DNA from: Amoebophrya sp. A120
Taxonomy: Eukaryota > Protista > Dinoflagellata
DNA: 64,000 nt
Assembly: GCA_905178155.1 (NCBI GenBank)
Contig: CAJINV010000004.1
Coordinates: 1,998,391 to 2,062,390, forward strand
Direction of reading: 5' to 3'
Below, piece by piece: positions 10,220 to 59,767 of the stretch. The position numbers were made by a program, and so were the translations under genes. Every line of letters begins with the position of its first letter. The first letter of the stretch is position 1. A model generated the notes under the pieces. That model was not told the origin of the DNA and did no database searches. It saw only the letters and a program-made list of their open reading frames with translations.

Positions 10220-10303
10220 TTACTTCTTCTTCATGGCCATCATCTTGGACATCTTCTTCATCGGCTTCGCCGCCGCCTTCATGGACATCATCATCTTGGC
10301 CAT
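10220..10303 (-). CDS. 27-aa Met/Lys-rich basic micro-protein MAKMMMSMKAAAKPMKKMSKMMAMKKK
   Basis: Intact ATG...TAA below the ORF-track cutoff. Shares the ATGGCCAAGATGATG start and AAGTAAG end with the neighbouring DVNP; all Lys codons are AAG. Confidence 0.75.
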   Translation of the reverse strand: MAKMMMSMKAAAKPMKKMSKMMAMKKK

Positions 10304-10751
10304 TTTGAGGAAGATGTTTGTTGTTTTTCTAACGAAAACCAGCCCTACAATTGCAGTTGGAGAAAGCGGTCACAGAAGGTAGTGATAGGGACGCAAATTT
10401 TCTACAAACTGACTCGTGGCAGAGCTTCGCTACCATTTTCTCTCTTTACATCCGCATCGTTCGCGTCACTCATATCTTTTGCGTCACTCATGTCACATGA
10501 CGCTCGTTACTGAGGCGTGATGAACACCCAGGAGCACATACCACGAAGGGAAGCAGATACCTCCAAAGCTGTTTCGTTTATTGAGAGCAACCAGGTATTA
10601 GCCGTGTAGGCAACCTACAATAGGCAAAAAGTGGTGCTGTCACCAACCTCTAGCATTAGCTCAGACCGGCATGGATATACCACGACCAGGAGCGCTAGAG
10701 CACGCTACATTAGCGGCATTGTTCTTCGAAGAAAGATGTAGCTTGCGCCAC

Positions 10752-10844
10752 TTACTTCTTCTTCATGGCCATCATCTTCTTCATGGACATCTTCTTCATG
10801 ACCGGTGCCGGGGCGGCAGCCATCATCTTCATCATCTTGGCCAT
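10752..10844 (-). CDS. 30-aa Met/Lys-rich basic micro-protein MAKMMKMMAAAPAPVMKKMSMKKMMAMKKK
   Basis: Intact ORF, paralogous to 10220-10303. Length differences between the two preserve frame, while the flanks are dissimilar. Confidence 0.75.
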   Translation of the reverse strand: MAKMMKMMAAAPAPVMKKMSMKKMMAMKKK

Positions 10845-11784
10845 TGTGTTGGTGGTGTTTTTTGGAATAAATCCCTTTGTCCCTACAGTTTATTATGGTT
10901 CATCCCAGTTGTGATTCATGTTCCAAATGCCTTCGCGCATTTTACCGCTCAGGACGAATCTCTGCTTGTGATCATTTCACTTCTGTGTTGGTTTATCTCA
11001 CTTTGCGTTATCACTCATTCATGTCCAACAAAAGGTGTCTTTCATTTATCCTTATGTTTGACGCTCACCATTCTCTCTTCTGTGCATCATGTTTCGCGCA
11101 TATATTGACTGTTACATGTAACGTGCACAAGGGATTCTATGACACTAGCGACGAAGAACAACATCTATGCGAGGATCTTCTGCTGCGGCCACATACCTGC
11201 AGACACGCGCTGGTGCGTGAGCGACCTGCGTACTTAATCATCGGTCGCCACCGACTGGAATGGAATTCACACCACATCCAGGACGGGAAAACACGATCGA
11301 TTTTGGATTCCGAGTCACGTGATCCGCTGGGCCTCTTCGTACGAAGACGACCCTCAATACATCATTTTGGTTCCTGTCCTTTACGGACCTTCCTTTGCGG
11401 AGGGAGGAGACGTTGCGGTTGATGTAGGCGGCGACATCGCGTAGAGCAACGGGTCTACGAGAAGAATACCGCGTCGTATGAAGAACGAAATCGCGCTTCA
11501 ATCTGTGTAATGCGAATAGGTTGTTGCTCGTCCGCTTCACAGCTAACACGATCGCTCTTCTTAATGATGTCGGTTTTGACTTTCCCTCATTCAGGCACAT
11601 GTCGCATACTTGGTGTAACGCTTTGCGACCTGGCTCTCAACTCATGCAAATTCGATCCGCACTGTTTGAAGGCGTGATTACATTCTGATAGCAGGCGGAT
11701 TTCTTCTCAGCTGGCCAGCAAGATGCACATGAGCACGAATTTTCCGACAACGTTCATCTCATGGGTCATCGTCGTAAGGCACGC

Positions 11785-12147
11785 TTACTTCTTCTTGTAG
11801 ATCATGCCCAGCTTCTCGTGCTTCTTGCCCACGTAGGTGCTGCCGTTGTAGACGAAACTCGCCTTGCCGGCCTTCTTGGCGGCGAGCATCAACACGAAGT
11901 ACGCGTTGAGCTTCTTCTGTAATGGTTTTGACAAAGAAGAGTGATATGCTGGAAGTGGAAAGTTCCTTCTGTAGGAGAAACATGTTGGTACAAATGTAGA
12001 GAAAGTTTTCAGTTTTCATGTTTGAAACAGACTGGAACTCAAGGAAAACAACGTTCATCCAGAAAAAATTACCATGCCGCTCATCTTCTTCATGGACATC
12101 TTCGCCATCTTCATGGACGACATCTTCATCGACATCATCTTGGCCAT
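11785..12147 (-). CDS. 68-aa basic protein: MK-rich tail plus non-DVNP basic domain KKLNAYFVLMLAAKKAGKASFVYNGSTYVGKKHEKLGMIYKKK
   Basis: Exon 1 12073-12147 (MAKMMSMKMSSMKMAKMSMKKMSGM), phase-0 GT-AG intron 11917-12072, exon 2 11785-11916. Strong G/C third-position codon bias. Confidence 0.85.
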
Positions 12148-12688
12148 CTTTGCGGAGGTTTTGTTATGTCAAGGACACAACAGACTGCTTCTCAATCTAC
12201 GTTTTCCAAACACAACAGAAAATGCCGCTTTGATCTGTACCTCAAAGTCAAAGCCAAATCTTCCACTCTCACATTGGCAATGGTTCCTGCACTGGCTCTA
12301 AGCTGATGCTCCAACACTTCCTCCCTCTCAGAAATACGGTCTCTCTGTGAGGAACAGAACCTGCTCCCAGCAACACAGCACCGCCCGCAACACGGGTGGA
12401 TTTTGAAGAACGCGCCAGGCGCAGTAGTGTATACTTATCCATCCTTTTTCAATGGTGTTACCACAGAAGACGGACATATCATGTTTCACACGGGAACTAT
12501 GGATGAACCACTTGTTCTACCGCGGGCCCAGGAGCCAAACCGTGCAAAAGTCTGCCACCATTGTGTGCACAGCGTCACAACCACAGGTCACAGAACTTTT
12601 CATCAGAAGGTCGAGGGACCAGAGGCGATCTTGATTTGCCAACACTCCATCAAGCACTGCGGATAAGACGATGTGTCTGAGTGTCCAC

Positions 12689-13244
12689 TTACTTGTAGAA
12701 GGACTTGGCCTTGGCCAAGAAGGCCTTGCCCTTGGCGGTCTTGCCACCGACCGGGACGAAGCCCTTGATGCCCAAGGCCTTGCGGGCCTTGCTGACGGCG
12801 GCGTTCCAGGCGGAGATGCGCTTGTAGGCCTTCTTGCCGGCGGCGGACTTCTTGATGGACACGATCTTTCCGGACTTGCTCTTCTTCAAGTCGGACTTCT
12901 TGAGGCCACCGGAGGTCTTCACCTTGGTGCCCTTGAAGACGGAGGATTTGCCGCGCTTGCCCTTGGCGATGGTGGACTTCTTCATGGCCATCTTCTTCAT
13001 GCCCATCTGTGTGTTTGAGTTTGATTGTTCCGTTCGAATGAATTGTGCGCACACATCACGCATTTAGTGATCGTCCAATAATATGCTGATACTTAGCATC
13101 ATTTCTCATGTACCAACAGGAAAAAACATGATACGACAGCATCAAAACAAGAAAATCAAGTACCTTCATGGACATCATCTTCATCTTCATGGACATCATC
13201 TTCATGCCCATCTTCATGGACATCATCTTCATCATCTTGGCCAT
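12689..13244 (-). CDS. DVNP: Dinoflagellate/viral nucleoprotein (132 aa)
   Basis: Exon 1 13164-13244 (MK-rich tail), GT-AG intron 13007-13163, exon 2 12689-13006. Carries the hallmark STIAKGKRGKSSVFKGTKVKTSGGLKKSDLKKSKSGKIVSIKKS...WNAAVSKARKALGIKGFVPVGGK. Confidence 0.97.
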
Positions 13245-14249
13245 CTTGATGGGGTGTTTTGTGTGGCAAAAAATCACTCAGCTACGGTTTTTGATTGAAG
13301 TTCAGAATGAAAAGATGTTGTGTCAAGACTGTGAATGCGCCCATGATACTTCGCAACGTGCCTAAAGTATTTACATGATAAGTAGCTCCTTCGCCCTTGG
13401 CCGTTTGGATTCTATTCTCTCTGTATCCGTATTGCTAGCGACATATCATGACCTGGCTCGCTCACTCAATCTCTCTCTCTCCGTCGCGCAATGCCTTGTA
13501 CTATACTGGCTTGTCAATTGCTAGGAAGCTTCAAAAAACAAACCACCATCGATTACTTCATATTGGCAGCCTCAGGTTCACAAGGTGGCATTTACAGTCT
13601 GCAATACCAATATCCAGTGCACGGTGCAAATATATAATCTGACATAGAAAGTACCGACTTCATCGAACAGACAGCATCAACGCCACGGCCTTCTTCTGCG
13701 CTCTTCTGGACTGTCGATAAGCAAATCGACAAATTCTCACCTGCGCGACAGAAACTTCAGGCACGTATGCGTCCTCTATAAGGGTCAGAATTCCCTATCA
13801 CAGTAGCTCAGGTGCGTGCACTCGGGTCGTAAAACCAGAAGAGCCATTGTGTATCCAGAGCGGTCGCTCCAACACGGAAAAACGCAGTCGAAGACTCCGA
13901 GCCCCAATCTCTGCTGCAATCCTACACTCCAGTGTCTGCTGCGATGCCGTTCCCACAGCTCTACTGCGACACCGTACCCCGCCGCACCTCTACTGCGAGG
14001 CCGCACCGCAATGTCACATCCACATTCCGTCTCTACTGCCATGCCGTACCCACAGCCTTGCTGCGATGATAGGGTGCGCGTGGTGCTCGTCTCGCATACG
14101 TCTTACCAGTTAAGTCGCAGGACACGCGGGAGACGGAGGGCTAGCGGCGACGCCTTAGTACTTAATACCAAGCGTGCACAGTTCCACTACCAACAGGCCC
14201 AGGTACCGGAGAGGGCAGTCGTGTGACAGCAGCGCAAGCAGGCGGATGC

Positions 14250-18417: not shown

Positions 18418-21400
18418 TCACTTTTTCATCACGTCGCCGTTGCTCTCCGCCTCGTCGGGATGGTCTGCCACCCAGCGGCTCACCGCCGCGGCAACTGCGT
18501 CCGCGGCCTCTTCGATTTCGGCGTCGGTGGTGTAGCGTCCGACCGTGAAGCGGACGGTTCCCGCCATCTGCCGCACGGTTCGCTTCATGGCCTCCAGCAC
18601 GTGCGAGGTCGCGTGCCCGTCCGAATGGCACGCCGCCCCCGCGGACGCGGCCACGTGGCTGCCGAGGTAGGCGGGACCCAGAAACGCCTTCGCGTCGGTC
18701 ACTCGCAGGAAAGACAGCGAACTCGTGTTGGGCAATCGCCGCGGTGGCGCCGGGACGGCTTGATCGGTCTGCCGCGTCACCGTTCCCTGTGCCGACGAGC
18801 TGCCGGCGTGCTTGTTTCCCCTCTTGATGTTCTGCTCGTCCCCAACTTCTAGATCCGCCTCGCCGCTTCTTGGAAGGTCGAGGACCACGAAATGCCCCAT
18901 ATCAACCACAAACATGTCTGGATCACGACCTGGAAACTTGTTTACTACGTGGGGCTGGGGTTATAATTGAGAACACTACTTCTAAGCGCAGCCGAAATAG
19001 AATGCTAAACTGCTTTTTTGCATGAAGATGAAGAAGGAACGCTGCGCGTTGTTTAATATCATGCAATACAAATCTCTATTTCCACACGAGGAATCATGCG
19101 CCCGGAGCCGCGCGTGCCAAGATCCTTACATCCTCCCCTTTCACGACCCTGACACGTCTCTGCCTTTGATACTCCAGCTTTTTCACCGATTCCTCCGTCA
19201 AATGGTCGGATTCTTTCACCGCGCAGGTGGAACTCCCGTTTTGCGCCGCCCCGCTCTCGGACTTGGCGGAGCTGCCCGGTATTTTTCCACCGCCTCCATT
19301 CACAACCACGTGCTCCGGACCGACCGCCCGCAAGACGCGGGCCTCAAAGGCGTCCCGCTTGCGCCGGAGCTCCTCCGAGATCCGCGCGTCAAAGATCGTT
19401 TTTTTCGTTGTCTCAGCACGACCACTATGGGTTGCAAAAGGGTCTGGGTCTGGAAGAGTAAGTGCAAACTTGTGATGCGCATTTCAGAACACCTAGAAAT
19501 CTCTCATGCATAGGCAGCAAAAGTTGCCCACTTTCTGTCACCAAAGTCAGGGATTTGTCATGAGGATTAGGCATTGCAGAACCTTCTCGAAGTCTGTGAT
19601 GCTAGGGCTTCCATGCCAGATGACCTTCTGCGTCATGCAAAAACAGCATGCGTGACATCTTCCAGACCCAGACATATTTGCAATGCATACTCGTCGGCGA
19701 CCTGCAATGTCAACTCGCACGCCTTCCCCAGCCCGACGCAGTAGGCCACGTTCTCCGTGGACGCCCGCAGCTTTTTTTCCTGTCCCGCGCCGTGCAGAAA
19801 GGGTGGCAGAATTGGGCTGCAGTTGGCCACCAACAGGGAATCGTCTTTCGGCAGCAACACAAACGCCGTGTCCAGGTTCCTCGCGTGCTGCTGTGCGAGC
19901 AGGGCTTGGTTTTCCGCCACGGTCTCGGACACCTTCTTCAACAGTTTCCGCACGTCCGTCGCTGAGAGTTCCGTGGGCATAATATCCGCTCGCACCAAAG
20001 GTTGCTCGCCGGCACCCTCGATTTCGTCACCATCCGCCGGTGATGCCGATTTGGACACCGCCACCGACTTCGTACCCTTCGTCGCCTGGTCCGAACGCGT
20101 TGCCTTCTGCAGCTTTTCCTCCCGCGCCGCGGCCTTATGCATTGGAAAAGTATTTTTAAAGTGTACTTACGCAATACAAATCGTATGTGATGACAAAGTT
20201 TTTCAAGAACAGAGTCGGAATGTGTCTCCTGTCATGCACTATAACAGGCCAGTTATGAGCAGATCTGTTCTATTATATGGCTCAGATTTTTAGATTTCAA
20301 GTACAACGAGTACGATACTTTCGCGATGTGGATACGCTTGGGACCCCACCAACTGGTTCAGGAAGGGCGTGAAAACCTGGCTGAAAAAAGTGTCCAGTAG
20401 CGAACTCCGCACGTACAGGGCCCCCACGCCCTTGGGCGCGTACACCTTGTGACCGGCGACCGTGAGGTAATCACAGTTCAGCGCCTGCACGTCCACGGGT
20501 AGTTTGCCCACCGACTGGCTCGCGTTCCTATCGCACGAAAAAATGCAGAGGGCACTGCAGCACAATACAAATAGGACACTGATGAAACTTACGAGCGTAG
20601 ATGAACTACAAGTGCTGGATCACTGCGAATAAGTGCGATTTTGTATATGCAAGGTGGTAGAAAACTATTCGCAATATCAGCGCCCTGCAAAAGCATCACA
20701 AAGCTGCGAAACTCCTCCACAGGGTAAGAATATTCTTCGTGCGATAATCCACGTGAAAATAGCAATGGGTCAGAAATTCCCGTTGCGGCAGCTGATTGTC
20801 GTGTAGTTAGGTGATTTTGAGATGATGATACGTAGGAGAACAAGGGATAAACGTGACTACGGCTCCAACTGTGAGACAAGATCCTTGCTGCGTATCAATT
20901 AATCGAATTCTTGGGTGAATCATCAGTCTTCCATCCTTTTGTGGAAGCAAAGCCACACTTTGGAGGTTGTGCGACTGGTTCCACGAAAATACCAGAATTT
21001 TAGCAAAGACGCCAAAAGAAGTCACGGGACAGTCGATCAGGTGAAGTTGCGCAATTCGAGTTGTACATTTTTTTCATCATTTTTAACATTATCGCGAAGA
21101 TTAGGTCCACTTATTGAATATATTCCTCGTTAATCGAAAAATATTTTGATACGGATACCGTGTCCGGGTTATAGTTCCGGGGGGTGGCGCCGCGCATGGG
21201 CGACCTGGGCCGCGGCTGGAGGTATCAAGATGAAACATCCATCCTCCCGATAATTCGAAAGGCGACCTGATGTTCTGCTACTGCTGCTGGCCATTTGGAT
21301 AAAAAAAAACAAAATAAAATTCTAATATGGCAAAAGGCAAATAAGGATGCGTACGGCATTCGCATTGCTGTGAGGCATGGAAATAAAGCGGTGCATGTTC

Positions 21401-24400
21401 GGCATGACGGGAACCAGCCGCATCTTTTCGGCATTGCCGGGAATATGATCAGCGTCTTGACAAATCCATCGCGCTAGACTAGGACGCCTCTTTGGCTTTG
21501 CCTTTTAGCACTACAAATCGACCTCTTCGTGTATGCAAATTAGAATCCCGCGTGAGCAGCAGTTTCTCATCGAATTTATGGGGACAACGGATTTTTCCTC
21601 ACGATAGGGAGGGAGTCCCGCGCCGGCTCCGACTCCGCCCCAGTCGGGGGGTCTGAATGTACGCGCGCCGCCACAGACTGGGAACCCTCTCCTTGTGCAG
21701 GTTATGGAAGCGCCAGGTTTAAAATAGACAAAGTTGAATAAATGATTTGTCATGCATAAAATGCAAGGCATGACGTGCCTGTCTTGCGGGGATGGCAAGT
21801 GAGGCCGACTGTCAGCCTGTTTAGGGTTTGAAATAGAGCTGCTAAAGTAGCATGACAAAAGCAGTCTTCTGTGCCCAAACAGCATGACAAATTGCATTCC
21901 GGAGCTCGGAAAAATTGTCATGCAACGCTTGGGAATTGGGCTTCCAACTGGTATAGATTTTATGCATTACAAGTTACTACTACTTTGTCGATTTCGATCC
22001 TGACAGTTCCATACAGGTGCGCGGTCGCGTACATGACGCAGTTGCGCTGCTGAATCCGGCGCGCGATTTCCGCTTATCAACTGTAAAACTGTCTGGGTCT
22101 GCAAGAATCCAACTTGTCGCGCTGATTTTGGATTCTAAAAAAAATCTGTATTGCATGAGCAGCAAAGAGAGTCCAAGTTTTGCTACACGGAAAGAGCATT
22201 TGTCATGCGGTATAGGCATCAGGAAGCCCTCACAAAATCTGTGATGCTAGGGCATGCATCACAGACATCAGGAGTCATGCAATAAAATGTGCATGACAAA
22301 CCTGAGGGCCTTGTGTTCCGGCTACTCCGGATCGCAATCGATGGAGGGCGGGACCTGCACCGGCGACAGGCGCTATCCAACCAACCAACCAAACCTGGCA
22401 ATCTTCCAGACCCAGACATTTTTACATTTGATACCGCTATTGGCTGTACCACCCCGGTCTCGTTATTGGCGTGCTGGATCGATACGAGAAACGTGTCGGG
22501 CCGCAGCGCCGCCGCCACGGTTTATTCATTGCAACCATGTTTGGCTCGGGAAAAAAGCGAGGTTTGTCACGCTCGGCCAGCATGCCCCGTAAATCTGTCA
22601 TGCACGACGTTACCCAGCCTGTAATAGATACCGACCGAATTTTCTGCCATGCATAACCGCAGGCTGCCATACAGATGAATAGGCAAAAACTTGCTACGCT
22701 TGCTGGTGGTCGTCATTCGCAGCGTCCTGATGATTGTCCAACTTATATCACAAGCTTCCAGAGCCAGACATATATCCAAGGTCTGGAATGCGGGACCTAG
22801 CATGACAAACTCTGTGAGGTTTTTGTCATGCCTATACTGCATGAGAAATCCCCTCCGAACTTGGCCGAAAGTGGGCAGCTTTTGGCACTCATGCAACACA
22901 GATTTTCGCATGATTCAGATTTAGCACGACAAGTTGCAATCTTCCAGAGCCAGACATATTTGCAATCCGTACGGACTCCGGATCCACGACGCCATGCTCG
23001 TCCACGTCGAGGTAGGTAATCCTGTGTGAGAACGTCCCCGCCATCTTCCCAGAGTTGTCATGCAAATCTGCATGATGAAGATGTTTCTCCTGCGCAGCCC
23101 CGAGGACCCTTTTCTAAGATGCCAGATCTGGGATGTTGACCTTGTCTTGCTATAGTACGGATGAAATGATCGATTTGTGACGCGGCTGCTGCACTAGCCA
23201 CACACGACTATACTCTGAGCTCAAATTTGTCATGCGCAACAGCCAAACCTTCTTGATTTGTGTAAGCAGACTCCCCATGATCTTGGCTATAGGGGGTGCG
23301 TAAGTACGTTATTTCACAGGATACACGTAACGCTGACATTATCCCACATCTCCAGGGCCTTGCAAACTTCCAGCACTGCGACGTGTTCCGTTTTCTGCGT
23401 AATCACGTGCCCGCGCTGGAAGTTGTTTTTCGAACAGCCAAAAAAGCAGTGGTTAATGGTTTCGGTTCCGTTGGACATGAAGAGCACCTCGTCCCCCTCC
23501 CGGACGTTGAGGCAGACCCGCACGCGGGTCCGCGCGAGCTCCAGCGCCGCCTTCGCCCGCTGCCCGAACACGTGCGAGCTGCTGGCATTGCCCCAATACC
23601 CGGGTTTGCTGGCGGACAGCAGAAAGGGCTCCATTTCCTCCATCACGCGTGCGTCCACGGGCGCTATCCAGAGTAAAAACGTCCCCACCCCCGCGTTGTG
23701 GTTCTTGTCATGCAAATCTGCATGCCCAGTGGAACATCTGTCATGCGGCTCCGCGTGGCGGGCATTCATCTCCAATCGTGTTTGGTAATCTGTCATGCGC
23801 GAATCAAGGAGTAATAGAATGGATTTGCGAAGTGGAACACGCGTCATCTGGGCCGCTACTTAGGCAGGACCTCTATACTGCGTCGCCAAAGTTGTCATGC
23901 ACGACCAATCGCAAATAAAGTTGTAGATTTATTGTCTAGCAGATTACTTCCCTCCATCTTGGCTATGGGCTGGAGCTGTTTTTACACAGGGTAGGTGTGG
24001 TGCCATTGTAGTCAAGATAAATCGGGTCTTCTGGGGCGAAGTATAGGGGGTTGGACCTTGTTTTTTGGAGGCCGGGATAGATGGCCAGGCTGTGAAAAAA
24101 AAACAAAGCAAAATACTTTCTCAGATTTGAATAAACTGCACACTATTCTAGCATCGCCGTTGAACCGCTTCGCGGCTTAAGTATCGCTATTAAGACGTCA
24201 GATGCATCTCCTCTAGCCGTCGGGTGCCACATGAGAGAGAAGTCCTTAGAACCTCTCAGCCAGACTGGATTTTTAGAGCTTGTTGTATTGTAAGTAAGTA
24301 CTTACCTGGGAGGCGCGACGGCGGGCTCAACCACAACCGGTGGGGCCATGGGTTCGGGAACCGGATTTACCGCCAAATCGTGCAGGTCCGCGCGGATATC

Positions 24401-35502: not shown

Positions 35503-36647
35503 GTTGCAGCGGCGTGATTCTATCTATTGACTCCGAGGACTGCTGGTCATTTCTACTGCACTTTGATGTTCATTGTCTTTCCCCAGCTATATAAATCGCC
35601 GCGGCGTGGACAAATTTCTTTAGGATTTCGTCGCAAGCCTCCCCTATAGTGATCAGGCGACATGTATCTTCGTGTACCGAATACCCTCCGACCTAATGAA
35701 TGAATATATGTACCAAATACCTCCCGAGAGTCAGAACAAGCGAGCAGGCGCTCTTGGCCTTGATTAGGCATACCCGCAAACGTTTTAAGAATGCACGCAA
35801 TCCCAAAGTCGGCCACTACCGCAAGAGTTTTCCCCTCAGCGAGCTTCTTGTACAAGATGTTTTCGGGCTTGATGTCTCGGCTGCACCGGGACGCAGGGTC
35901 GGGGAGCATACTGGATGTGGAAACGCGAAGTTTCTATACATCGGGTCAAAAAAACAGCCCTAAGCTACAACCTTGAAACCCCAGCATCGACCCTATCTGC
36001 GCCAGTCACGTTGCAGGGGCGTGCGGACTACTGGAGAAGATGTGGCGTCGCATTACTGAAATGGAGAAGATCCACTGTAGCTGCGCTGGCCACGGTGCAT
36101 GGAGATGCGGATTACTGGAAGGAGAAAGATGCATCTTCGCCCAGGAGAGGTGGCTAGATGGAAGGAGAGAGGTGGCGAAACACATTTTACACGAAGAAAG
36201 ACAAAAAGCCTGCTTGATGGTGCCAGTTTTTTAAAGAAGGAGAAGGTGAAAGGGGGACTCAAGGAAAGCGATCAAAGAACCTGTAAGACATACGAACGGA
36301 AGTCCACGGCGTGCGCACTCCCTGATCTTCTAAAGCTTCCGACGCCAAGCTGAAAAATTGAGATCAGGGTGTTGAGCGAATACTTCCGCACTCGATAAAC
36401 GCCCGTCCTCGTTAATCTGCTTTGCTTACTTCGCGCCAGTGTGTGAGTCGCAAAGATCCTCCCGCAGGCATTACTGACACCCAAGGAAAACCACAATCGC
36501 CTGGCTTGCCTAGTGCACTGCATCAACACGGTGCCAGATTTGCTGAGAGACTGGCACAAACTAATTATTTCCCCCATCTATTGCAGCGGCGTGATTCTAT
36601 CTATTGACTCCGAGGACTGCTGGTCATTTCAGCACTTTAATGTTCAT
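35503..36647. repeat. ~65-70 bp direct duplication (35503-35573 and 36581-36647)
   Basis: ttgcagcggcgtgattctatctattgactccgaggactgctggtcatttc...gcacttt.atgttcat is present twice. Confidence 0.9.
35553..35930 (-). pseudogene. Protein kinase fragment (subdomains VIb-IX)
   Basis: RDIKPEN, VADFG, GTRRYMSP, GDLYSWG. The HRD motif appears broken by an extra base (GTG CAG C CGA GAC), there is an early stop, and no N-lobe was found. Confidence 0.65.
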
Positions 36648-46400: not shown

Positions 46401-48521
46401 CCTGCTGTGCCGGCAGCACAACTTCCTTCCCTTGCATTCTTTTCCTCGTGCGGAACCACGGAGTCGACAGGTAGCAGGAGCTCCTCCCCGTTCTTCAGTA
46501 CTTCTGCCGAATCTGTTTCTATTTCTGTGGCCGCGTCTTTTTGATGTTCGGCTATCTTATCATTTACATTTCGGGCTGGGGGGAGATGATCCCCCGTCAT
46601 CTCCTCCGGAAGTTCAAGCGCGTCAACTAAACTGGACGTAGCGGTAACAACAGTGGACTCCGTGGTCTTCGAGTCACTCGCGGTGAAACCTGAATTCGCG
46701 GCCTCATCTTCTTTCGCCCCGGTTGCCGGCGCTCCTTTTGGATCGCCATTTCCCAAAGAGTATTTTTCGAACAAAAAGTTTCGTCCCCGGTAGCCGCAGT
46801 CCTCGCAGACGCAGTTGTCTGAATCCTGCTGAGCCTTGTGCAGGGCTGCGCACACCTGGGCCGCAGACTTCCGGTGGTCGCCGGAATAGTAGTCCCAGAG
46901 CGTGTTCTATGGCGAGAAAAAACTGTCTCAATTTTTGTCATGCTCGACACGCAAGAACAAACAAGGCATTTGTCATATAATGTCTCTTCCTCCCTTCTTG
47001 TGCTTGACGCATCACAGGTAGTTGCGTGTGTGTCATGCTGACCGAATCTGTGTAAGTAAGTTGCGGAGAAGTCTGCAAAGGTTTATTGAGGACAGTTGTT
47101 TTCTTCCTGCTCGGATAGGTTCCTTTTCGTGACGCCGTCCTCGAGGTAGATTTCCCGGTCGAAGAGCAAGCACTGCAACTGCACCAGCACCGACTCCACT
47201 GAGTAGCTGGGACTCCACCCGGAATACCGGCTGTTCGCCCGGGTCGGCAGCGTCATATCCAAACAAAAAACCGTGTAAGTAAGTGTAACTTTCTTCGGTT
47301 GACAGCATCACAAATTTGCTCTACATGACAGAGAAAACCTGTCAAGCGCTGCTTGCAAGGGAAGACACACATGAAAAAAGGACTTCGTGGTTGTGCGGCA
47401 CGACAGGCGTAACTCTGTTGCATATTCTGCATTACAGAGTTACACTTACGCAGTTTTTCTTCTCGCATACGTCAGTAGGTCCGTGCAGAGCTCATAAGTC
47501 TTCTTCACCCGGCCGTTTATGCCCTGGGCGTAACTAATCGTATCAAATGCAAATATGTCTGGGTCTGGAAAGGTAGAACTTGTAATGCGTGTCATGCATG
47601 CCTGGAAAATCTGTGTTGCATGAGCAGCAACTGGGCTGCAGCTTCCCTTGTCATGCAAAAACGCAGTTTGTAATGCGTGTTAGGCACCATCAGTGGGCGC
47701 TTCGGAAGCCTGTCATGCTTCGCTGCCATTGAAAGCGTTGCAATCATGCACAATTCAGCATGACAGATTTCCAGACCCCGACATATTTGCATTTCGTAGC
47801 TCGTGTTGTAGAGCCAGGTGGACAGGTTGTTCCAGACGCAGCAGTGCGGGAGGTAGTTTTGCAGTCCCACTTTCGGTATAAAATGCAAACGTGTCTGGGT
47901 CTGGAACAGTTTGTCATGCATTTTCTGAAATGGATACATAGATGGTCTGGAATGCGAATGCACGTGAAGCATGACAATTTTTGCGATTCTTGCGATTGCT
48001 TTTTAATGCATATCCTGCATGTTGAGGAGCTCGCCATTATTTGTGTGGCAAAACGTGGGCAGCGTTCATTGGCACTCATCTGCAAAAATTCAGATTTTTC
48101 CCCGCTCGAGATTTCGCATCACACAACTCACACCCTTGTTCCAGACCCAGCCATATTTGCAAACAATATTCGGCGGCTTCTTCGGGTAGTCCTCGGGAAA
48201 AAGGACGATCAGGTGCACTTTCAATCCTGTGAAGTGCCCGGACAAGGGCGCAATGGTCACGTGCCATTCGTACAGATTGCTCTCCTTCACGTGGAGGCTA
48301 ACGCCGGGGAGCGGGTGCTTCGTCAAGTAGTCCAGATCTTTCAGCAGTCGGTACTGGACCAAAACTTTCTCCTTCTTGTGCAAGTTCGACAACGAAGTGT
48401 AGCTGCCTAGTGGGTTCGCGGCCGTGCCGGGGCTGGAGACGGGTGCTGGGACAGGGGCGGTAGTTGGTCCCGTAGGGTTATTTGTCGCGGAAGTTGTTGT
48501 AGGGGAGGACATGTTTTGCAT
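37467..48521 (-). CDS. Large multidomain protein: N-terminal ubiquitin-conjugating (E2/UBC) domain, S1/OB-like repeats, conserved C-terminal domain
   Basis: RLLKDL...NLYEWHVTI...LFPEDYPKKPPKV...YLPHCC...YELCTDLL (catalytic Cys position)...GWSPSYSVESVLVQLQCLL. S1-like segments: FQPGQRLEGIVMDVR...GIFVAVSDTIVGLV and VGDRVSVWV...LDLSL. C-terminal part: SFDLISKEGF...GVRTSVW, HHSEKALEGYIGFHHLF, VPNLGEFL. Confidence 0.75.
37696..39790. mobile_element. Introner cluster (37696-37997 F, 38079-38362 C, 38799-39058 C, 39177-39454 A, 39520-39790 A)
   Basis: Direct repeats TCAGG, GCGAT, CCGAA, GCGTT/GCGTC and GCAAG. Confidence 0.88.
41059..42799. mobile_element. Introners 41059-41321 A, 41487-41748 A, 42475-42799 E
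   Basis: Direct repeats CGCTC, GCTGC/GCTGT and TCGGT. Confidence 0.88.
47541..48168. mobile_element. Introners 47541-47798 A and 47877-48168 A within the UBC domain
   Basis: Family A TIRs; direct repeats AATCG/GCTCG and TTCGG. Confidence 0.88.
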
Positions 48522-49534
48522 TTTGATTCTCTTTCGTTTGATTTTTACGTCAACCAATATTAGTAGGATCTTCCAGGATCTTGGAAATACTTTAGGTTTA
48601 CGAAATAGAGAGATGCAGATTAGAACCAGAAGGGTGCAGCGCCGATTAAAACGTTGGTTCTAGAAATAATAAATAACATCCAGCAGGAACGGCAACTCCT
48701 GGCTCCGTCAGCACAAACAAGTTTACATCGTTTTCTTTCGTTTTGTCAAAGCCAAGTGCTCACCGAAAGAAATCAACAGAAAATGAGCATCCAAAGAATT
48801 ACCGAAAACCCCAACGTATGATGCTTCTCGTTCTACAGGGAGGGGAAAATACTAAAGCGGGTTGCCGCGGGGGCAGCTAACGAAGAGGAGGTGTTTGCGA
48901 ATGTTCTTGTAGAGAAGAGGCGATAAAGCAAATGCAAAATGAAACAACTACCGACGAAACAAATGTCATGTCGAAACAGATTCCCTGCGGTGTGGTGAAG
49001 CAAACTCCAGCTGGTAGGTAGGATCTGATCGCGCTCAAATCAGGGTGGACAAGATCGCGGATTTTCGAAGTGTTCTCGTGAGCAAGAGTGCCGACTTTAG
49101 CCGTTGACATGCAGACATGAAGGAGAGCCCGCGTGGACGACCGGTTTGAATACCAATAGATCATGTGTCGGGTTGCTGGTGTAATACTGACAAGGAACTC
49201 AGTTACACCTTCGTTTAAAGCCTCGAAGATGAGGTGTAAGCAAATAACTACGTCGGAAAACCGAAAAAAACGAGCGAGAGCAGCGAGAAACAAACAATCA
49301 GGCGAACAAAATGTGAACAAGACGTCCTTGCAAGCGACAAGGAAACGCAGTGCGTCGGTAGCGATGGTAATGGTTAATCTCGGTACCTCGAAAAAAAAAT
49401 AAGTGGAATGGGAATCCAGTACATCAATGAGATTTACGTTCATAGGTGTCGTGACTCAAAAGCGCACTACTCGTCAGTCGTCACTTTTTCTCATTGCGCG
49501 TGGAATCTTTAGAGACCGGCTACTTATCTGCTTC

Positions 49535-51741
49535 TTAGTGTTTGCCTTTTGTTCCTTTGCCGAATCCATCGTGTTCGGTGCAAACACAGCACGCGTGGCA
49601 CCATATAATGACCTTCTCCTTGGCTCCGAAGAAGATATCGCCTTCATTCAAATTGTTTTCACCTTTATTGTCGTATTTGTACTCATTCAATCCACCTTTC
49701 GCGAAGATCGCGGCGCCGGAGTCGGAATCTTTGGCTTTGCCTTTGCCTTTGCGATCGCGGTAAGAATGGTACATCTTTGCGAATGTCTCGCCGCACACCG
49801 AAACCGAATGTAATTTTTTGCCTTTGCTACTGTGGAAAGTGTAGATATTCCTTCCGTACGTTTCCCGGGGTTCAAGTTCAACGTAAGTTACTCGGTCATA
49901 ATCTTTGCAGTTCATCAACTCGCCGAATCCAGGAGGCTCGCCGCGTGAGAGGAATATCTCCATGTCGGCCGTTTCCGAGATTTCGCATTTTCCGTACAAC
50001 TCGTAGGCGTGCGCGTAACCTTGCACTAAGGTTTCGGGGCCGGTGCCTTCTCCGCTGCTGCCACCTTCGCTGGGGTTGCCCCGCTGCTGACAAGGAGCGG
50101 AGGTATGCGGATAGTTGCTCAGAAACAGAGAGATCGCCTCGTCCACAGTCAGGCCAGCGAGTTTCGAGCAAGTGCGGCTAGTTGCAGTTAGCGAGCGGTC
50201 CGTTGTAGTCCCTGCCATAGTCTTATTTTCCAAGCTCTTTATCACCTCTTCCAAACACGAGAAGTACTTGCGGAGCAAACCAATGTTTTCGTCGGCGAAA
50301 AGTCGCAATGCGCTCCACCGCTCGCTGAAAGGCAATACCTCGCCTATGAGTACCGCATTGCGACCCTTGTGGCAGTGTGAACACTCTGCCACGTCCTCTA
50401 TTTTTCCTTTTCCTTTCTTCCCTGTGCTGCTTAAAATCCAGGCCGACTTTTCCCAGAAAAAATTCTGAAAAAAGTGGCGCTTTTCCAATTCTTCGAAAAG
50501 CTGCGCCAGTCCGTCTTTCCGCGCGACGCAGCCCAGCAGAACTTGCATACATTCCCGGTACTTCGGCGCAAGCCAAGACGAGGATCCGATTTTGAAGCAC
50601 CTGTGGAGAGTTTGAGTTTTCGTATGTAGCAATGTACTTCACCAGCAAGAGATTGATGCATAACACCAAATCAATTTCGCTATCCATCAACTAATAGATA
50701 CTGTATTTGATCAGGGAGCACCTACTTGAAAGCGAGAATATACTTGCCAAGGAAGTCCGCAACGACAGCAGGGATTATTTCCTCCGCTTCCAGCTGGAGA
50801 GCCTGCTTTGCCAGTTCGAAGCAGCGGCCTTCAGCTTCATCAAGGCGGTCCCACTCCAAAACCCCCAGCGCTACTTCCAAGCAAAAACTCTGTCTCTGGG
50901 ACACCGGAAAAAGTTGTCCGCCGCTCTGCTCTTCGTGTTTCTTCCACTCCGAAGGAGGAAGTTCCACGATTGCGCGGCACAGATCTGTGAACCCACTGGT
51001 AACTAGGTAGCAACCGCCCAGGAGACAAGGAAAGCAGTTCCCCCCAAGCGCCGACCTCCTCTCTTTTTCCGGATCCTGCAGGTAGACGCGGTCGTAGATG
51101 AAAGTGCGCGCCTTCTCGACGGTGTTCAGGTCCTTGATCAGCTGCCGCACTCGCTTCCTCCAATCGATCCACTCCCTCGACCCATCGCCATCCTCCTCGA
51201 GCGTGAGCCCGCTACTCACGATGACAAATTGGTACACGATGTGACTATTTTCGAAATTCAGTGCGGTGTCCGGAGATAAAAACGCGTCTGCAGCGGAGGA
51301 AGATGAATGCTCGTTGTCCTTTGTCCCACCGTCGCCACTAGCTTGCCCTGGGAGTGCCTCTTCCTCGCCCGTTCCGTCACTCGCCGGCCCGAAAACGCTG
51401 ACGGCATCCTCGTGCTCCGACAGCATGCTGCAGTCTTCTTCAATTTCCCCCTCCGCATCCTCGTCTTCGCCCACGCCACACGACTCCGCGTCCTCAGCGT
51501 CTTCCACCATAAGCCACCGCAATAGCGAAGCCGGCGGAAAGAGCGGACCGTCGGGGCCGAAGAAGGGGGCTAAGATCGTTCCTGATATTGCGGATAGATC
51601 GTGGACGGTTTTGGTCTTTGTAGGGTCCAGTGTGACAACATGCTCCGCACCGGTGAAATTTCGCACGCGGAGGCTCACGGTAGCAGGCGGGGACGGCAGG
51701 GCTTCCTGCGGTTCAGGCTGTGATGCTGATGGCGTCGACAT
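49535..51741 (-). CDS. Uncharacterised family, paralog 1 (ubiquitin-like N-terminus); 2 exons
   Basis: SLRVRNFTGAEHVVTLDPTKTKTVHDL. A GT-AG intron at 50601-50725 joins ORFs 50722..51741 and 49535..50632 in frame; YRECMQVLLGCVARKDGL matches the other paralogs. Confidence 0.75.
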
Positions 51742-52500: not shown

Positions 52501-53937
52501 CTAAATTACCAACACTGCAGAGGAGTCGTTAAGCAGGGTCAGCCACAGTTCTTCGACGTCAGTCCACGACACGCCCGCTTCGTGCTTGGCCAATGCCTGG
52601 CGGAAACAATCTTGGAGATTTAAGTACTCGATTTGTCTTCTCAGTGGCTGCAGTTTCGCGAGGTCGGACAATGCGCTAAATTCTAAGTCGTAGCTGATTT
52701 TCAGCTCGTTCAAGAGGTCCTGCAGACGCGTGTAGCAATCTAGGTGGGCGCGCAGCTGTACAGTAAGGCTGGCCCTTAGGCCGTTAACAACGTGCGAAAT
52801 GTCGTAGCGTAGCTGCTCGTCTTCGTTGCTGCTATCGTCCGCTGTGGATGTTGAAGCATACCCGCGACTAACTTCCGCTAGCCACTTTCCTTGTGTGTTT
52901 AAAAGATGCTCCCAGTGGCTGCGGCAGACATCCAGGCCCAGCAGCTTTTCTTCGAGCCGGGAAAAAAACTGCACTACTGCGCCGCGGCTGGCAATGTGTT
53001 TGAGCAGCGCCCTGATGTACGATGGTGAAGAGGTGATATACACGGAGAAAAACACATCAGCCACACAAATATGATCAACATCCGCCACGGCTAGTGCCTG
53101 CTCAAGTACGGCCTCATCCTCGTCCTGCCAGTAGCTGTCACGCAGGCCGTTCGCGACGTACCGCGCGTACTGCTGGCGCTCCGCCACGACGAAGGCCCGG
53201 CCGTTGCTGCGGCGTTCATGCTTTTCCCACTCGGACGAACCGAGTCTCAACGCGGCGTGTGCTAGGTGCACCCACCCTTGCGTCACTACTGCTCTACCAG
53301 TGGCAACATGACTGGACTTGTAGGGAAGGAGAACGTATCCACTTGACCAAACTGGCTCGCTGCGACAGGCGTCCTCGAACTTCCTGTCTTCGTGGGCACC
53401 GCAAAAAAAAAATTCGTGCGCGTCCGCCACGGACGTAATGCTTCCGTCGAGCTCCAAGCAGATCCTTTCTGCGTGCGCGCGCTCCGATTCGCCCTCCCGG
53501 CGCTGCAGGATTGGCGCAAGAGGGGTATACGCGATCGTGAATTGGTACACGTAGCTCGAGATTCCAAACTCAAGCTCCGTCCCTGACGCAAGGAATTCGC
53601 TCGGGATTGCGTCCTCCTCTGCCGGTGTGTTCTCTTCTAGCCCGCGGCGTTCCTCGTCGTCCTCCGCGTCCGTCGCGTGATCGTCGCGGACCAGGAGCCA
53701 CCGAAGTAAGGTGCTCGGCGGTACGAGGTCGGTCGTGAAGTCGAAAAACGGCGCGAGTAGTCTTCGCGGATCGCGCGACAAGTCGCGGATGGTTTTCACC
53801 TGTGCGGGATCCACGTCAATTGCGTGTTCCACACCATTGAGATTCCGGATTCGGAGCGAACAACTCCCTGTCGGCTCAGCCGGCGGCTGAGCCTGCGGGT
53901 CGGAGGAGGCTGAAGCTCTGCCGTCGGGGGCTGCCAT
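52501..53937 (-). CDS. Uncharacterised family, paralog 2 (ubiquitin-like N-terminus)
   Basis: Intronless ORF; SLRIRNLNGVEHAIDVDPAQVKTIRDL, YQFTIA, EWEKHERRSNG, WTDVEELW. Confidence 0.8.
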   Translation of the reverse strand: MAAPDGRASASSDPQAQPPAEPTGSCSLRIRNLNGVEHAIDVDPAQVKTIRDLSRDPRRLLAPFFDFTTDLVPPSTLLRWLLVRDDHATDAEDDEERRGLEENTPAEEDAIPSEFLASGTELEFGISSYVYQFTIAYTPLAPILQRREGESERAHAERICLELDGSITSVADAHEFFFCGAHEDRKFEDACRSEPVWSSGYVLLPYKSSHVATGRAVVTQGWVHLAHAALRLGSSEWEKHERRSNGRAFVVAERQQYARYVANGLRDSYWQDEDEAVLEQALAVADVDHICVADVFFSVYITSSPSYIRALLKHIASRGAVVQFFSRLEEKLLGLDVCRSHWEHLLNTQGKWLAEVSRGYASTSTADDSSNEDEQLRYDISHVVNGLRASLTVQLRAHLDCYTRLQDLLNELKISYDLEFSALSDLAKLQPLRRQIEYLNLQDCFRQALAKHEAGVSWTDVEELWLTLLNDSSAVLVI

Positions 53938-54493: not shown

Positions 54494-56150
54494 TCAGTGT
54501 TTCCCGCTGATCTGATAATCTAAAATCCGCCTGATGAAAGCGAATTCCGTGTAGCGGACGTCCTCCCGATCCCAGCCGCCGGCCGCCAATTTACGCCCGT
54601 ACCCCTTCTCCGCCAGCCAGCCCTCCGGGCCCCACGCGGCAAACTTGCGCTGCTCGACCTCGCTGCCACACAGGTCCGCGGCGTCGTGTTTGAATTGCTG
54701 CAGCGCCTCCAGGTCGCTCCCCAGCGGAGAGAAGTGGGTCAGCGGGCCGAAGTGGTGGGCGCACGCACCCAGCGTGGCGTCAATCAGGAGTTTGTCCACG
54801 TCCTCTTCCGTCACAACTGGCTCCTGCATGGAATCGTGAAATTCGTCAAACTTCTTCACTGCTTCCAAATAGCTTCTCAGAAACGCTCTCCTCATGTCGC
54901 GCACGTCGTCGCGGGCGAGGGTCCGCTGCTCCCGCGGCATGTCTTCGTAGTGAAAACACACGTATCCCAGATCGTTCCACGCCGCTGCGGCGGTTGTGAA
55001 CTCCAAGTCCAAAAAACGGAGACTGCGAGGGTCATCTTGATCTTCACGAGCATTTTTATCATTCCCGTCAACTTCATCGCGGGATGAAGCCGCGGAGGAT
55101 GTCGTGCCAGAAGTGCCAGTCACTTTACCTTCAAAAATCCTGGCTTCCCCCCCATCCGCTGTACCATTTCCAAAAATCGCCACCATGTTTCCCGCGTGCA
55201 AGTCGCCATGGCACGTGACGATTTTCCCGCCGGCCGCGGTCAACGGTGTGAACATCGGCTCTACGTATTCAGCCAGCCATTTCGCGGCCTCCGATCCTGG
55301 TGCTTGCTTAGCTTGCAAGACCGCCTCGCCCAAGAGCTGCTCCGTGCGACAGCTATAGATACCACCAAATATGGGAGGCGTTAGGATCGCGATCCGATCG
55401 AGATGTTGAGACGGAAGAAGTAGACAACTCGTCCTTTGTAATATCCCTGTACGACTGCCCCAACGGCGGAAATTGCTTCTTCAACCTTTCGCGGAACGGC
55501 TCGTACCAAGTTGGAGGGACGGATTGATGCAGCCGCGCGACCTCGCGCCCCAGAAGTTTCATGTCGGCGATGGTTTGTAGTGCGAAGAATGGAGGTTCGA
55601 CGGTTTCGTTTGTTCCTTTCTCCTGGTCAGCATCTTGCCGTTCTCCTAACTGCAACCACTCGTTAAGAAACCAATCTACGCCGCTCGCAACGTGCTTTGG
55701 GAAGAGGTTTTTCTCGCTCATGATTTGAATGGCGGCGATGGTGCGCTCTTCCGAGTCGGGGTCCAGTTCCGGGTCGCGCGAGCAGAATCCCAGAGTCAGG
55801 GTTTGTCTTTCTTTTGCAAGGGTAGAAGAAGCAGATGAACTTGCTCCACCCTCGCTCGCGGTAGGACGAGCAGTGGTTGATACTGCATTTTTTCCATCTT
55901 CAATTACTACACCCTCGCTGGGGCTGGCCACAGAGGGTTTATTGTCAACAGTAAACTCCAAACTGATCTTGTAAGTCTTGCTCCCACCGCATCCGCTCCG
56001 GTCGTGTACTTGGATGGAATCGTGTAGAATGGTGTGCTTGGCCGGGTCAAAGAGATCACTCGGATGTTCTGAGAGGATCTTCGCCACAAAAATACCAAGG
56101 CTTTCAAGATCCTCGCGAAGAGGGAAAGATTTGGTGTTGGCTGTCGACAT
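54494..56150 (-). CDS. Choline/ethanolamine kinase / APH-like phosphotransferase, interrupted by a frameshift near 55355
   Basis: SGCGGSKTYKI, VTCHGDLHAGNM (Brenner motif), FLDLEF...NDLGY. The two ORFs are offset at TGG TGG TATC TAT AGC. Confidence 0.7.
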
Positions 56151-56977: not shown

Positions 56978-59767
56978 TTACAACTTATGCTGCTCCATCA
57001 TCGCGCGCAGCTCCTCCGATGCCACTTCGGACAGGATCCCCTCGGCGACCTCTATCAAGTTTGCGGGCTTTTCCGTCGAACCCTGGCCTGCGCCGGTTTC
57101 CCCGCAGAAAAAAATCTTTTCCAGTTCTCGCCGAGTTTCCCAGCGCATCTGTATCCCGGTGGGAAATCCACTTTTTGTTTTTCGCTTTTTTCTAGTTTAT
57201 GCTGAGCTGTGTAAATGACAGAGACCGAAATCTTTGCTGCAGTTCTTCTTCTAATATGTCCAAATTTAAAACAACTTTTTTTCCATTGTCTCTGAATGTA
57301 AAGGAGCCCTTTCGATGATCCAGCAACACGACAGAGCGGTCGTGACTTCTGTGAAGATATTTTTTTATACTTCTGAACAAGGACTGACGTGAAAAACAAA
57401 TTGGTGGATTTCCCCTGTCTACCCTGTCCCAGCAGCTCGAAAGCCATCGGCTGGGAAAAGCCGAGTATGCGCAGGGCCGTGTACCCGACTATGCCGGTCC
57501 GGTGCAAGCCGGCAGAGCAATGAACCGCTACTGTTTTTCCGCGCAGCAAGCTCGCGGCCACCAAGGCCGCGGCCCGTGTCACCGCGGTTCGATCTTTCTC
57601 CGCATCCTGCATTGCTGCGCCTGAGATGGGGAGATGTACCCACTCTGGTCTTCTTCTATTCGGGAGGACTGCGAGGTCTTCATTTTCGAAAGGAACTTTC
57701 GGTGTTGACGTGGAGTCGACCTCTTCAGGTGCATCAGCAATCAATGCAGGAGGCTCGGCCTGAACCTCTTTTGGAGAGGAACAGGGTCGTCGGCCACGTA
57801 GAAATCTTGTTGAAATACAGTGGCCAAGAGACAGAATTTCTGAAGACTCATCGTGATTTCTTTGATCAGCACTCCATTCGTCTCCATCGGCACACACGGT
57901 GTTTGCCACCGCCGCGAAGCTCAACCCCCGTTGCTGCAACTCGTCGTCCCGAAGTAGCGTCACGACGAAATCCAGTCCCTTGGCCCAACTCTCCAAAGTT
58001 TTCATTCCGGGCGCCCCACATAGCACCAGCCTGCCTTTGCGGACTGGGAAACAAGAACCGGGTCTGCTCGTCGGTTTTTTAGACGCAGAAGGTTGATGTT
58101 CTTCGATAACTCTAGTAGTACCAGCCTTGCTAGAACTTGAGCTCGTGGCTGCTGCTATAAAACTACCGCCCACGATAATTTCCTTTGCCGCTAACAGCCG
58201 CGCCTCGGGGGAAGCAAACCAAGTAACTCTGATCTTTTCTTCATCAGTCTGCTCAACAGCAGATGCAGTAGAATTCTGGTTGGAGCTACCACTCCCGCTT
58301 TTCTTTTTTGCCGCGAGCCACGCGAAAAGAATCGTCTTGGTGCCTTTGTTCATCGCGTCCTGTGCCATCAATCCGACTTCCTTCGGGGAAGAGAAATTGG
58401 GCGCAACTGTATCCCGCAAAAACTCCAATTCCTTGTCTGCGAGTTCCACGCGCTCCTGCAACAGACGCTCCGCGACTGCACCGTAATCCAACACGCCACA
58501 ATTCCGCATTTTCACCACCGCCTCCTCCACACCGGCCCAAGATTTGGCCCCGGCAATTACGTGGTCGAGCCACTGCTTTGTCGGCTGCGGCACGCCGCTG
58601 CGCGCCAATTTCTTGTACACCGCGCTCTTCACCTTGTACTTTTTTAGAAGCGGCACTGCCATCTCGACCACGAACCCCTCCCGCAGGTCCGCCAGGGTCC
58701 CGCAGCGGTCCAGCACCGCCAGCTTCTCGCGCAATTCCGCCACCGTGCACACCTCACAGGGCGCGTGGGTGCTGGGCGCGGTAAGCTTTATTTTTCGTGC
58801 GACCGCTTCCAAATTCGTGGAGGATATAACTTCGCCGGTACTAGCGTCGCAGGCGTAGAGCAAGACGAGCCTGTTTTCCCCGCGGTTGTTTTCCACCTTG
58901 GCATCCTTGTCGTGAATCAACTCGAAACCAAGGGTCCAGGCCTCCATTTGTTCGGAAAGGATTAGAGCCGTCTCTTCCGACAGCAACTCCCTCGCCAGCT
59001 GCGTCTGCAACGTCCGGATCGCCCCACGGGTGAATAGAAGCAGCTCCCCGCGGAAGACCGTGACGAGGACACAGCTACCGTCAAACTTTTGCATACAGGT
59101 CACCGGCAGTTGCTGTCCTCGGGGAGAGTCAGGAGAACCACTCGATGCATCGGGTTCTTGGGTTGGTGGTTTCCTGGAATCGGGTTTGAAAGCGTCGCTC
59201 CCATCGGTGTGTGCAACCGCCGACTCAAAAATGTACCGCTTCGCCTCCGCACAGTGTTCGTACCCGTGGAACTTGACCATCGGTTTCACCACGATTTCTG
59301 GGGGACAACCGGATTTCTTGAACAGCACGCACCCCCGCGCCACTTGCAGTATGCAGAAGCAAAAGCGTTGATAAATATAGTCGTGGAATATGCATATCAG
59401 TACAGTATTCTTCAACTACGGGCTGCGTCAGGTTTTAGAATGGAAAAACAAAAAACAATGACAAATTTTCCATGGTAGAAAAAACTATGTACTTACTTAC
59501 TCTTAGTCCTACTCACAACAAGCGGCCCACCATAATGTCAATCGCTTTGTAATGCGTACCCATGCGCCAGTCCCAGTTTTCCGGCGGGGTGGACTCGTTG
59601 TAGCTGTCGGTGTAGTTAACGACCAAAAGCTCGCCGTCCCGAAAATCGGAGCAGGTAATCTTGACGTGGTTTCGTTTCTCCTGCTCCCGGTAGTACGCGA
59701 GCAATCCGCGCAGGGCCTCCGCATCGCCCGATCTGGCAAGGTCCGCGAGCGGGTGCAGAGTAGTCAT
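56978..59767 (-). CDS. T4 Rnl1-like ATP-dependent RNA ligase fused to a C-terminal cysteine (PTP/DSP-type) phosphatase
   Basis: LLVVNYT, ARGCVL, KPMVKFH, motif I QKFDGS, GFELIH, motif IV EGFVV, motif V KVKS; phosphatase P-loop VHCSAGLHRTG. GT-AG intron at 59343-59559. The 3' exons are approximate. Confidence 0.8.

Follow-up and report, generated by a model that had tools for sequence, protein, structure and literature searches.

A four-gene locus of Amoebophrya sp. A120 bearing one methionine/lysine-rich tail on DVNP, on a second basic core with giant-virus relatives and alone: a putative chromatin-condensing set

How DNA is packed in the absence of nucleosomes, in dinoflagellates and in the parasites related to them, has long been an open question. 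In the passages cited here, only histones, HLP/HCc and DVNP are named as packers (PMC13725142, PMC6313786, PMC10624901, PMC13693241, PMC5906630), the protein list of an October 2026 review comprising residual histones, HCc/MBNP-type proteins and DVNPs (PMC13725142). Nucleoproteins are unmentioned in PMC12005148 and PMC6394959. DVNP carries a lysine-rich extension that has already been described (PMC6723414), occurs in tandem, with up to three copies reported in Amoebophrya (bioRxiv 2024.02.09.579734), and is present in the virions of PkV RF02 (PMC11953307). HLPs are absent outside core dinoflagellates according to the available part of PMC10624901; because syndinians are without HLPs, DVNP is their only known bulk candidate, and there is therefore room for other packers. 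Here, we analysed a stretch of 64,000 nt from Amoebophrya sp. A120 (contig CAJINV010000004.1; hereafter the window) and the four tandem minus-strand genes, numbered 1 to 4, that lie within 3 kb of it (10220 to 13244). One Met/Lys-rich tail appears to be borne by a DVNP core (gene 1) and by a second core shared with giant viruses (gene 2), and to be encoded alone by genes 3 and 4. We consider it somewhat probable that these genes form a DNA-condensing set in an Amoebophrya-like syndinian.

The coordinates, lengths, phases and stops of the four genes, their MAKMM starts and their use of AAG, all of which had been described from the DNA letters alone (hereafter the original prediction), were reproduced. 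The MAKMM start sequence ATGGCCAAGATGATG has four exact minus-strand matches, beginning at 13244, 12147, 10844 and 10303; with two mismatches tolerated, 0.07 matches would be expected by chance, and six were reached in 0 of 100 shuffles. The spliced proteins are 132, 68, 30 and 27 aa long for genes 1 to 4, and AAG-TAA-G terminates every gene. AAG provides 71 of the 72 Lys codons (36/37, 17/17, 9/9 and 9/9), for a background of 149 out of 300 in 12 long open reading frames (ORFs) of the window, which may include non-coding ends. Likewise, the synonymous third positions are G or C in 108/112, 54/55, 17/19 and 17/17 cases, for a background of 0.60. The Met/Lys modules share 55-71 identical bases pairwise; no further comparable Met/Lys gene was found in the window, the three other matches of the scan being short chance runs.

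In both longer genes, a phase-0 GT-AG intron follows the first exon (13007..13163, 157 nt in gene 1; 11917..12072, 156 nt in gene 2). The module had been described as a separate exon, but the tail of gene 1 extends into exon 2. The near-equal intron sizes, which had been pointed out, count for little: the two introns align weakly (score 49 vs 25.7 +/- 9.2), this score being matched or exceeded in 3 of 300 shuffles.

Gene 1 consists of exon 1 (13164..13244, 27 codons of Met/Lys/Ser tail) and exon 2 (12689..13006), which begins with about 10 further residues of the module and contains the DVNP core (Pfam match about 12725-12952) and the stop. Exon 2 matches the Pfam DVNP family PF19060 at 69.5 bits (cut-off 25; E 3.5e-19). 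Its homologues numbered 1148; among the best 120 matches listed, the named organisms were Amoebophrya sp. A25 (74 %) and A120 (72 %), and 106 of these 120 have at least three Met in the tail. The protein is extended at its N terminus by a lysine-rich segment that is absent from viral DVNP forms. No supported placement of gene 1 was obtained in the DVNP tree. Judged from its sequence, gene 1 is an ordinary DVNP with the usual tail of the family: the Met/Lys tail singled out by the original prediction is present, but ordinary (106/120; PMC6723414).

Gene 2 associates a tail exon (12073..12147, 25 codons, Met/Lys/Ser) with an exon encoding a 43-aa unnamed basic domain common to marine giant viruses (11785..11916); an alternative acceptor for its intron was rejected, as it broke the frame. 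No Pfam match was found for genes 2 to 4; PHROGs and NCBIfam gave no match for the gene 2 domain either, and PDB sequences returned non-significant rows only (E 0.22 or worse). AlphaFold predicted one helix (residues 5-16) and three strands (pLDDT 93). Fold searches with this model gave no significant match (best Z 3.6; best Foldseek E 1.2 and 0.28), which is no proof of a new fold. An HMG box is not predicted, since one helix and three strands differ from its three-helix fold, and the sequence match to SOX9 had an E of 0.28 only. There was no Pfam or NCBIfam match to HU, whose chains appeared in Foldseek only as non-significant rows (E 2.4-3.6) and in none of the 50 rows of the Z-scored search. 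By eye, the helix of gene 2 resembled the C-terminal helix of DVNP, but this likeness was rejected by hhalign, which found no similarity between the domain and the DVNP profile (probability 0.05-0.08%, E 0.66-0.79). The domain differs from DVNP, as had been proposed, and can now be described more sharply: most members of its family come from contigs of giant viruses.

The best Foldseek rows, which were not significant (E 1.2), were those of the ribosome-associated factor Y domain. They would suit a scenario in which genes 2 to 4 encode basic RNA- or ribosome-binding proteins, e.g. for mRNA storage or ribosome idling in the dinospore, and basic low-complexity peptides are generally known to bind RNA as readily as DNA. 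We nevertheless regard this scenario as rather unlikely, given that the factor Y match is non-significant, that the genes stand in tandem with DVNP, and that their tail is that of DVNP, shown to be a DNA-binding nuclear protein (PMC6723414).

Because a word search with the single sequence gave one match only, relatives of the gene 2 domain were sought with HMMER and with a profile. The profile search yielded 419 matches, and 89 were obtained among 50%-identity representatives, a few of them spurious long proteins. The relatives sit mostly on AT-rich contigs of giant viruses (Nucleocytoviricota), with the domain behind Arg/Lys-rich tails. One Asn, one Phe and three Tyr positions were 99-100% conserved in 194 trimmed domains, which had been chosen by a pattern itself requiring some of those residues. 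Scans of viral collections detected 11, 16 and 2 partly overlapping loci; GC content was 23-29% in all 29, and many were named GVMAG. Among the three contigs that could be searched whole, one had six matches to the capsid of nucleocytoplasmic large DNA viruses (NCLDV) and the other two, which are fragments, had none. Atlas clusters were labelled Nucleocytoviricota at 0.86 and 0.77, labels that serve as leads only.

Ten of the 178 relatives with a scorable tail had a Met-rich one, including one from a source labelled mmetsp. The other 168 had no Met-rich tail and averaged 34% Lys+Arg; 63 of them contained a QxGG motif, which we take to resemble the cleavage sites of viral core proteins, and the style of GG followed by a basic run is also found in some viral DVNPs. 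A tail-only pattern had 0 matches in viral contigs. No relative was found in phage records, and a pattern-limited scan of prokaryote genomes gave 37 candidate stretches without any confirmed relative. A word search with the family motif in the PkV/HeV supplement tables, which may not contain sequences, gave 0 matches. Additionally, a recurring giant-virus gene block was observed around many family members (L078, L081, L084, L089 and L009-L011), i.e. an SNF2 helicase, Nudix, Erv1, the gene-2-family protein, HNH and three lectin-domain genes. On two AT-rich metagenome contigs (L012 and L013), the domain matched at two places per contig, with Ser/Lys/Arg-rich tails of more than 200 residues that look like protamine-like expansions of the family.

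Sixty-three of the 64 metagenome loci of the family had a GC content under 42%. The exception, L017, is a eukaryotic locus (47% GC, villin-like gene, tRNA-Val) with two tandem copies of the family, in which the Met/Lys tail is spread over phase-0 exons. A GC-rich codon pattern designed for eukaryotic copies had 0 metagenome matches. As far as these sequences go, both cores occur without the Met/Lys tail in marine giant viruses and with it in eukaryotes. We infer that the gene 2 core likely moved from virus to host, because of its diversity, its absence among the prokaryotes and phages scanned, and the DVNP precedent. The villin/gelsolin-like gene of L017 (513-2725 on this marine eukaryote contig; Gelsolin and VHP Pfam matches) has five in-frame TAG/TGA, three +1 shifts at TAGT (579, 1201 and 1592) and a TAA end; it may be a pseudogene or an assembly error, or else its stop codons may be recoded, with Euplotes-like shifts. 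Compared by eye with a villin consensus, the residues expected at its breaks look more Ala-like than Gln- or Trp-like.

Transcript evidence came from 8 of 23 listed runs, in which levels can be judged only poorly from contig depth; run X5 is poly(A) RNA on record, and X1 and X7 were taken as RNA by guess. Run X18, flat at about 42x and unspliced across 10815-12730, behaves as DNA; its lack of depth in a bin within the gene 1 intron is an uninformative hole. The gene 2 intron was removed in X5 (with no mismatches), X1 and X7 and retained in X18, and the gene 1 joint (13006/13164) was seen only in contigs of X1 and X7, with short sides of 26 and 22 letters. The 3' untranslated region (UTR) of gene 1 (12430..12688) ends at a likely poly(A) site, the contigs of X7 and X10 ending at 12430 and that of X5 at 12434. 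The likely last part of the gene 2 3' UTR is 11272..11472, with ends at 11272 in X7 and X10, likely another poly(A) site, and at 11237 in X5. A stretch of 219 nt (11473..11691) is skipped in the RNA-like runs X1, X5, X7 and X10, not in X18. Its termini are CT..AC on the gene 2 strand and GT..AG on the opposite strand, no ORF runs across it, and it is either a non-canonical intron of the gene 2 3' UTR or an intron of an antisense RNA.

The mRNA of gene 3 (10577..10883, about 307 nt) was delimited by a 5' end at 10883, which adjoins the library adapter in 4 reads of X21 and 10 reads of X23, and by a poly(A) tail at 10577 in 5 reads of X23; the adapter is presumably the template-switch oligo. No spliced leader was seen on the end reads of X21 and X23. 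For gene 4, exact-match contigs lay beside or ran into the coding sequence in X5 and X1, and raw depth was about 1-2x (X21, X23). X7 covers genes 1, 2 and 4, not 3, X21-X23 are dominated by gene 3, and X22 has no coverage of gene 4 or of the gene 2 coding sequence. All four genes are transcribed, with separate transcripts for at least genes 1-3. They had been predicted to be co-expressed, which is true only loosely given these differences between runs.

A GTAG motif precedes each ATG on the minus strand: at 13282..13285 for gene 1 (37 nt upstream), 12197..12200 for gene 2 (49 nt; an X7 contig reaches 12195), 10883..10886 for gene 3 (38 nt; the mapped 5' ends fall on its last base) and 10345..10348 for gene 4 (41 nt). 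For these four genes, the chance of such a motif in this interval, which was chosen afterwards, is about 0.04 per gene. In L017, it stands 37 and 39 nt upstream of the two ATGs (about 3230 and 4830), which gives six genes overall at 37-49 nt. GTAG is a candidate transcript-start motif of highly expressed syndinian genes.

Genes 3 and 4 encode tail-only peptides of 30 aa (10752..10844; 11 Met, 9 Lys) and 27 aa (10220..10303; 10 Met, 9 Lys), both with a pI of 10.9. Both resemble protamine-like proteins in being very short and in reaching a basic content of about 30% or more (Lys 9/30 and 9/27); neither contains any arginine, so that they are not Arg-rich as protamines are. The exact peptides were not found in a collection of 15 billion proteins. 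At least seven different sequences follow a gene-3-like stop among the loose ends listed (X1, X5, X18, X21-X23), and extra X18 contigs pile up on gene 3 to 600-800x vs 42x, a pile that can include other Met/Lys tails. Among the rows listed, gene 3 varied internally by three indels of 3 nt, by two synonymous substitutions and by one replacement of Ala by Ser. These data fit a maintained, frame-keeping, multicopy tail-only family of which gene 3 would be a member, although repeats of this kind would be expected to slip by 3 nt as well; gene 4 is similar, with weaker support.

The same data bear on whether genes 3 and 4 could be functionless transcribed duplicates of the DVNP tail, gene 2 being of viral origin and serving some unrelated purpose. 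The module identities reported above and the readiness with which a tail exon is duplicated would agree with this, and the tail repeats of 15-21 nt favour 3-nt slippage without selection. Conversely, codon bias is retained and the stops are intact, gene 3 starts and is polyadenylated at sites of its own and shows the distinct downstream flanks already mentioned, and no frame-breaking gene 3 indel occurred among the rows listed from the eight runs. We therefore hold such by-products to be quite unlikely, and the case that the original prediction had set as its refutation, i.e. dead duplicates of DVNP exon 1, does not describe three transcribed genes of which gene 2 is spliced and gene 3 keeps its frame in the variants listed.

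Methionine makes up 37% of both peptides, and methionine scavenges oxidants. The peptides might accordingly be imagined as mainly a sulfur or nitrogen store or an oxidant sink of the non-feeding spore, or as decoys buffering the nuclear import or the modification of DVNP tails. This would leave the conserved 43-aa domain of gene 2 and its Met-poor viral relatives unexplained, and a store needs neither a KKK ending nor a common start motif, so that we judge it very unlikely.

A host-directed role is conceivable too, in which small cationic products would be released into the host nucleus, loosening host chromosomes or damaging membranes: Amoebophrya grows within the host nucleus and digests host chromosomes (PMC9478091), and nucleosomes are displaced by DVNP in yeast (PMC13725142). 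The sequences show no visible hydrophobic leader, and helical amphipathicity was not above that of shuffles (reached in 864 and 91 of 1000); we hold this role to be even less likely. By the same comparison, a nature as amphipathic membrane-active peptides was not supported.

We slightly favour DNA condensation as the role of the set. The lysines of the tail would neutralise DNA phosphate and serve as a nuclear-targeting signal, and its methionines would give soft hydrophobic contacts between tails, while gripping or bending of the DNA would fall to the two folded cores. The gene 2 core, likely taken from marine giant viruses, would be a genome-packing protein in these viruses, as DVNP is thought to be. 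The free tails of genes 3 and 4 would add cheap, adjustable charge, in the manner of a linker-histone tail or a protamine, and may tighten chromatin in the condensed dinospore stage. In Amoebophrya, the chromatin of dinospores is condensed and that of trophonts opens, and the chromosomes of dinoflagellates are rich in sulfur, for which the authors suggest Cys/Met-rich proteins as the cause (PMC9478091). More tentatively, a second giant-virus packing protein may have been captured by dinoflagellate-line parasites, perhaps repeatedly, and given the tail exon, the tail being also expressed alone as a protamine-like family.

Several observations weigh against this reading. The predicted gene 2 domain resembles no known DNA-binding fold significantly, and the expression ratios of the four genes vary between runs. 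A eukaryotic context was found for only one Met/Lys-tailed relative (L017), an estimate of the eukaryotic range that is limited by the under-calling of intron-bearing genes in databases. The Met/Lys-tailed members appeared not to form one clade (8 changes; approximately unbiased test, p 0.045) in a tree of 44 columns built from 12 tailed and 40 diverse other rows out of 211, with support for 6 of 49 branches; with these members spread over several places of the tree, a single capture and its direction would be conjectural. Finally, within the viral flanks covered, DVNP occurred in 0 of 75 and 0 of 16 gene 2-family loci, and the gene 2 family in 0 of 20 viral DVNP loci. On these contigs, which are fragments only, nothing supports the idea that the two families were linked in a virus and captured together.

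The window gave no match in an Rfam scan. Its ten ATG-started ORFs of at least 300 aa are all encoded by the minus strand, in agreement with the blocks of co-oriented genes that have been described in Amoebophrya (PMC7789003). Other minus-strand features were observed as follows. A 741-aa ORF (57055-59280) has a C-terminal dual-specificity/tyrosine phosphatase domain and an N-terminal KFDG motif, which we take to be nucleotidyltransferase/RNA-ligase-like, making a ligase-phosphatase fusion possible. The ORFs at 50722-51741, 52501-53937 and 60489-62060 appear paralogous by eye ('RNxxGxEH' N-terminal motif, acidic linker) and had no Pfam match. A choline/aminoglycoside kinase-like gene extends over two ORFs (54494-56150), likely split by an intron, and exons of an aminotransferase class V stand about 2.7 kb apart (20293-23859). 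Elsewhere in the window, further weak matches were obtained to a protein kinase (35556-35933) and a ubiquitin-conjugating enzyme (48093-48659).

The locus adds two candidate packers, with exact masses of 3.1, 3.4 and 7.7 kDa for the products concerned, and suggests more than one capture of packing proteins from viruses. If the more tentative reading above is true, they would represent a third and a fourth class of histone replacement that gene callers and trypsin proteomics have overlooked. The gene 2 domain also defines a widespread, unnamed family of basic proteins in giant viruses. Gene 2 thereby hints at a second basic protein that is shared with giant viruses and bears the DVNP tail, more than was first read from the sequence.

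In the literature searched, outside subscription journals and bioRxiv supplements, neither tail-only peptides nor a second nucleoprotein shared with viruses were found to be described, and the known systems resemble the locus in part. Like DVNP (PF19060), gene 2 combines a small basic core of marine giant viruses with a lysine-rich tail in a eukaryote; unlike it, the gene 2 core has no similarity to the DVNP profile, and genes 3 and 4 are coreless. The HU-derived HLP/HCc of dinoflagellates would offer a parallel, as they too are basic proteins acquired horizontally in addition to DVNP, but HLPs are of bacterial origin and are limited to core dinoflagellates in the available part of PMC10624901, whereas the relatives of gene 2 are viral. 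Protamines, protamine-like sperm proteins and the tail-only linker histones of protists share with genes 3 and 4 a very short, coreless and about one-third basic product; the latter differ in being rich in Lys and Met, devoid of arginine and derived from the DVNP tail. Finally, the viral members of the gene 2 family, small and with long Arg/Lys/Ser runs, are reminiscent, in this general character, of viral protamine-like core proteins such as baculovirus P6.9 and adenovirus protein VII.

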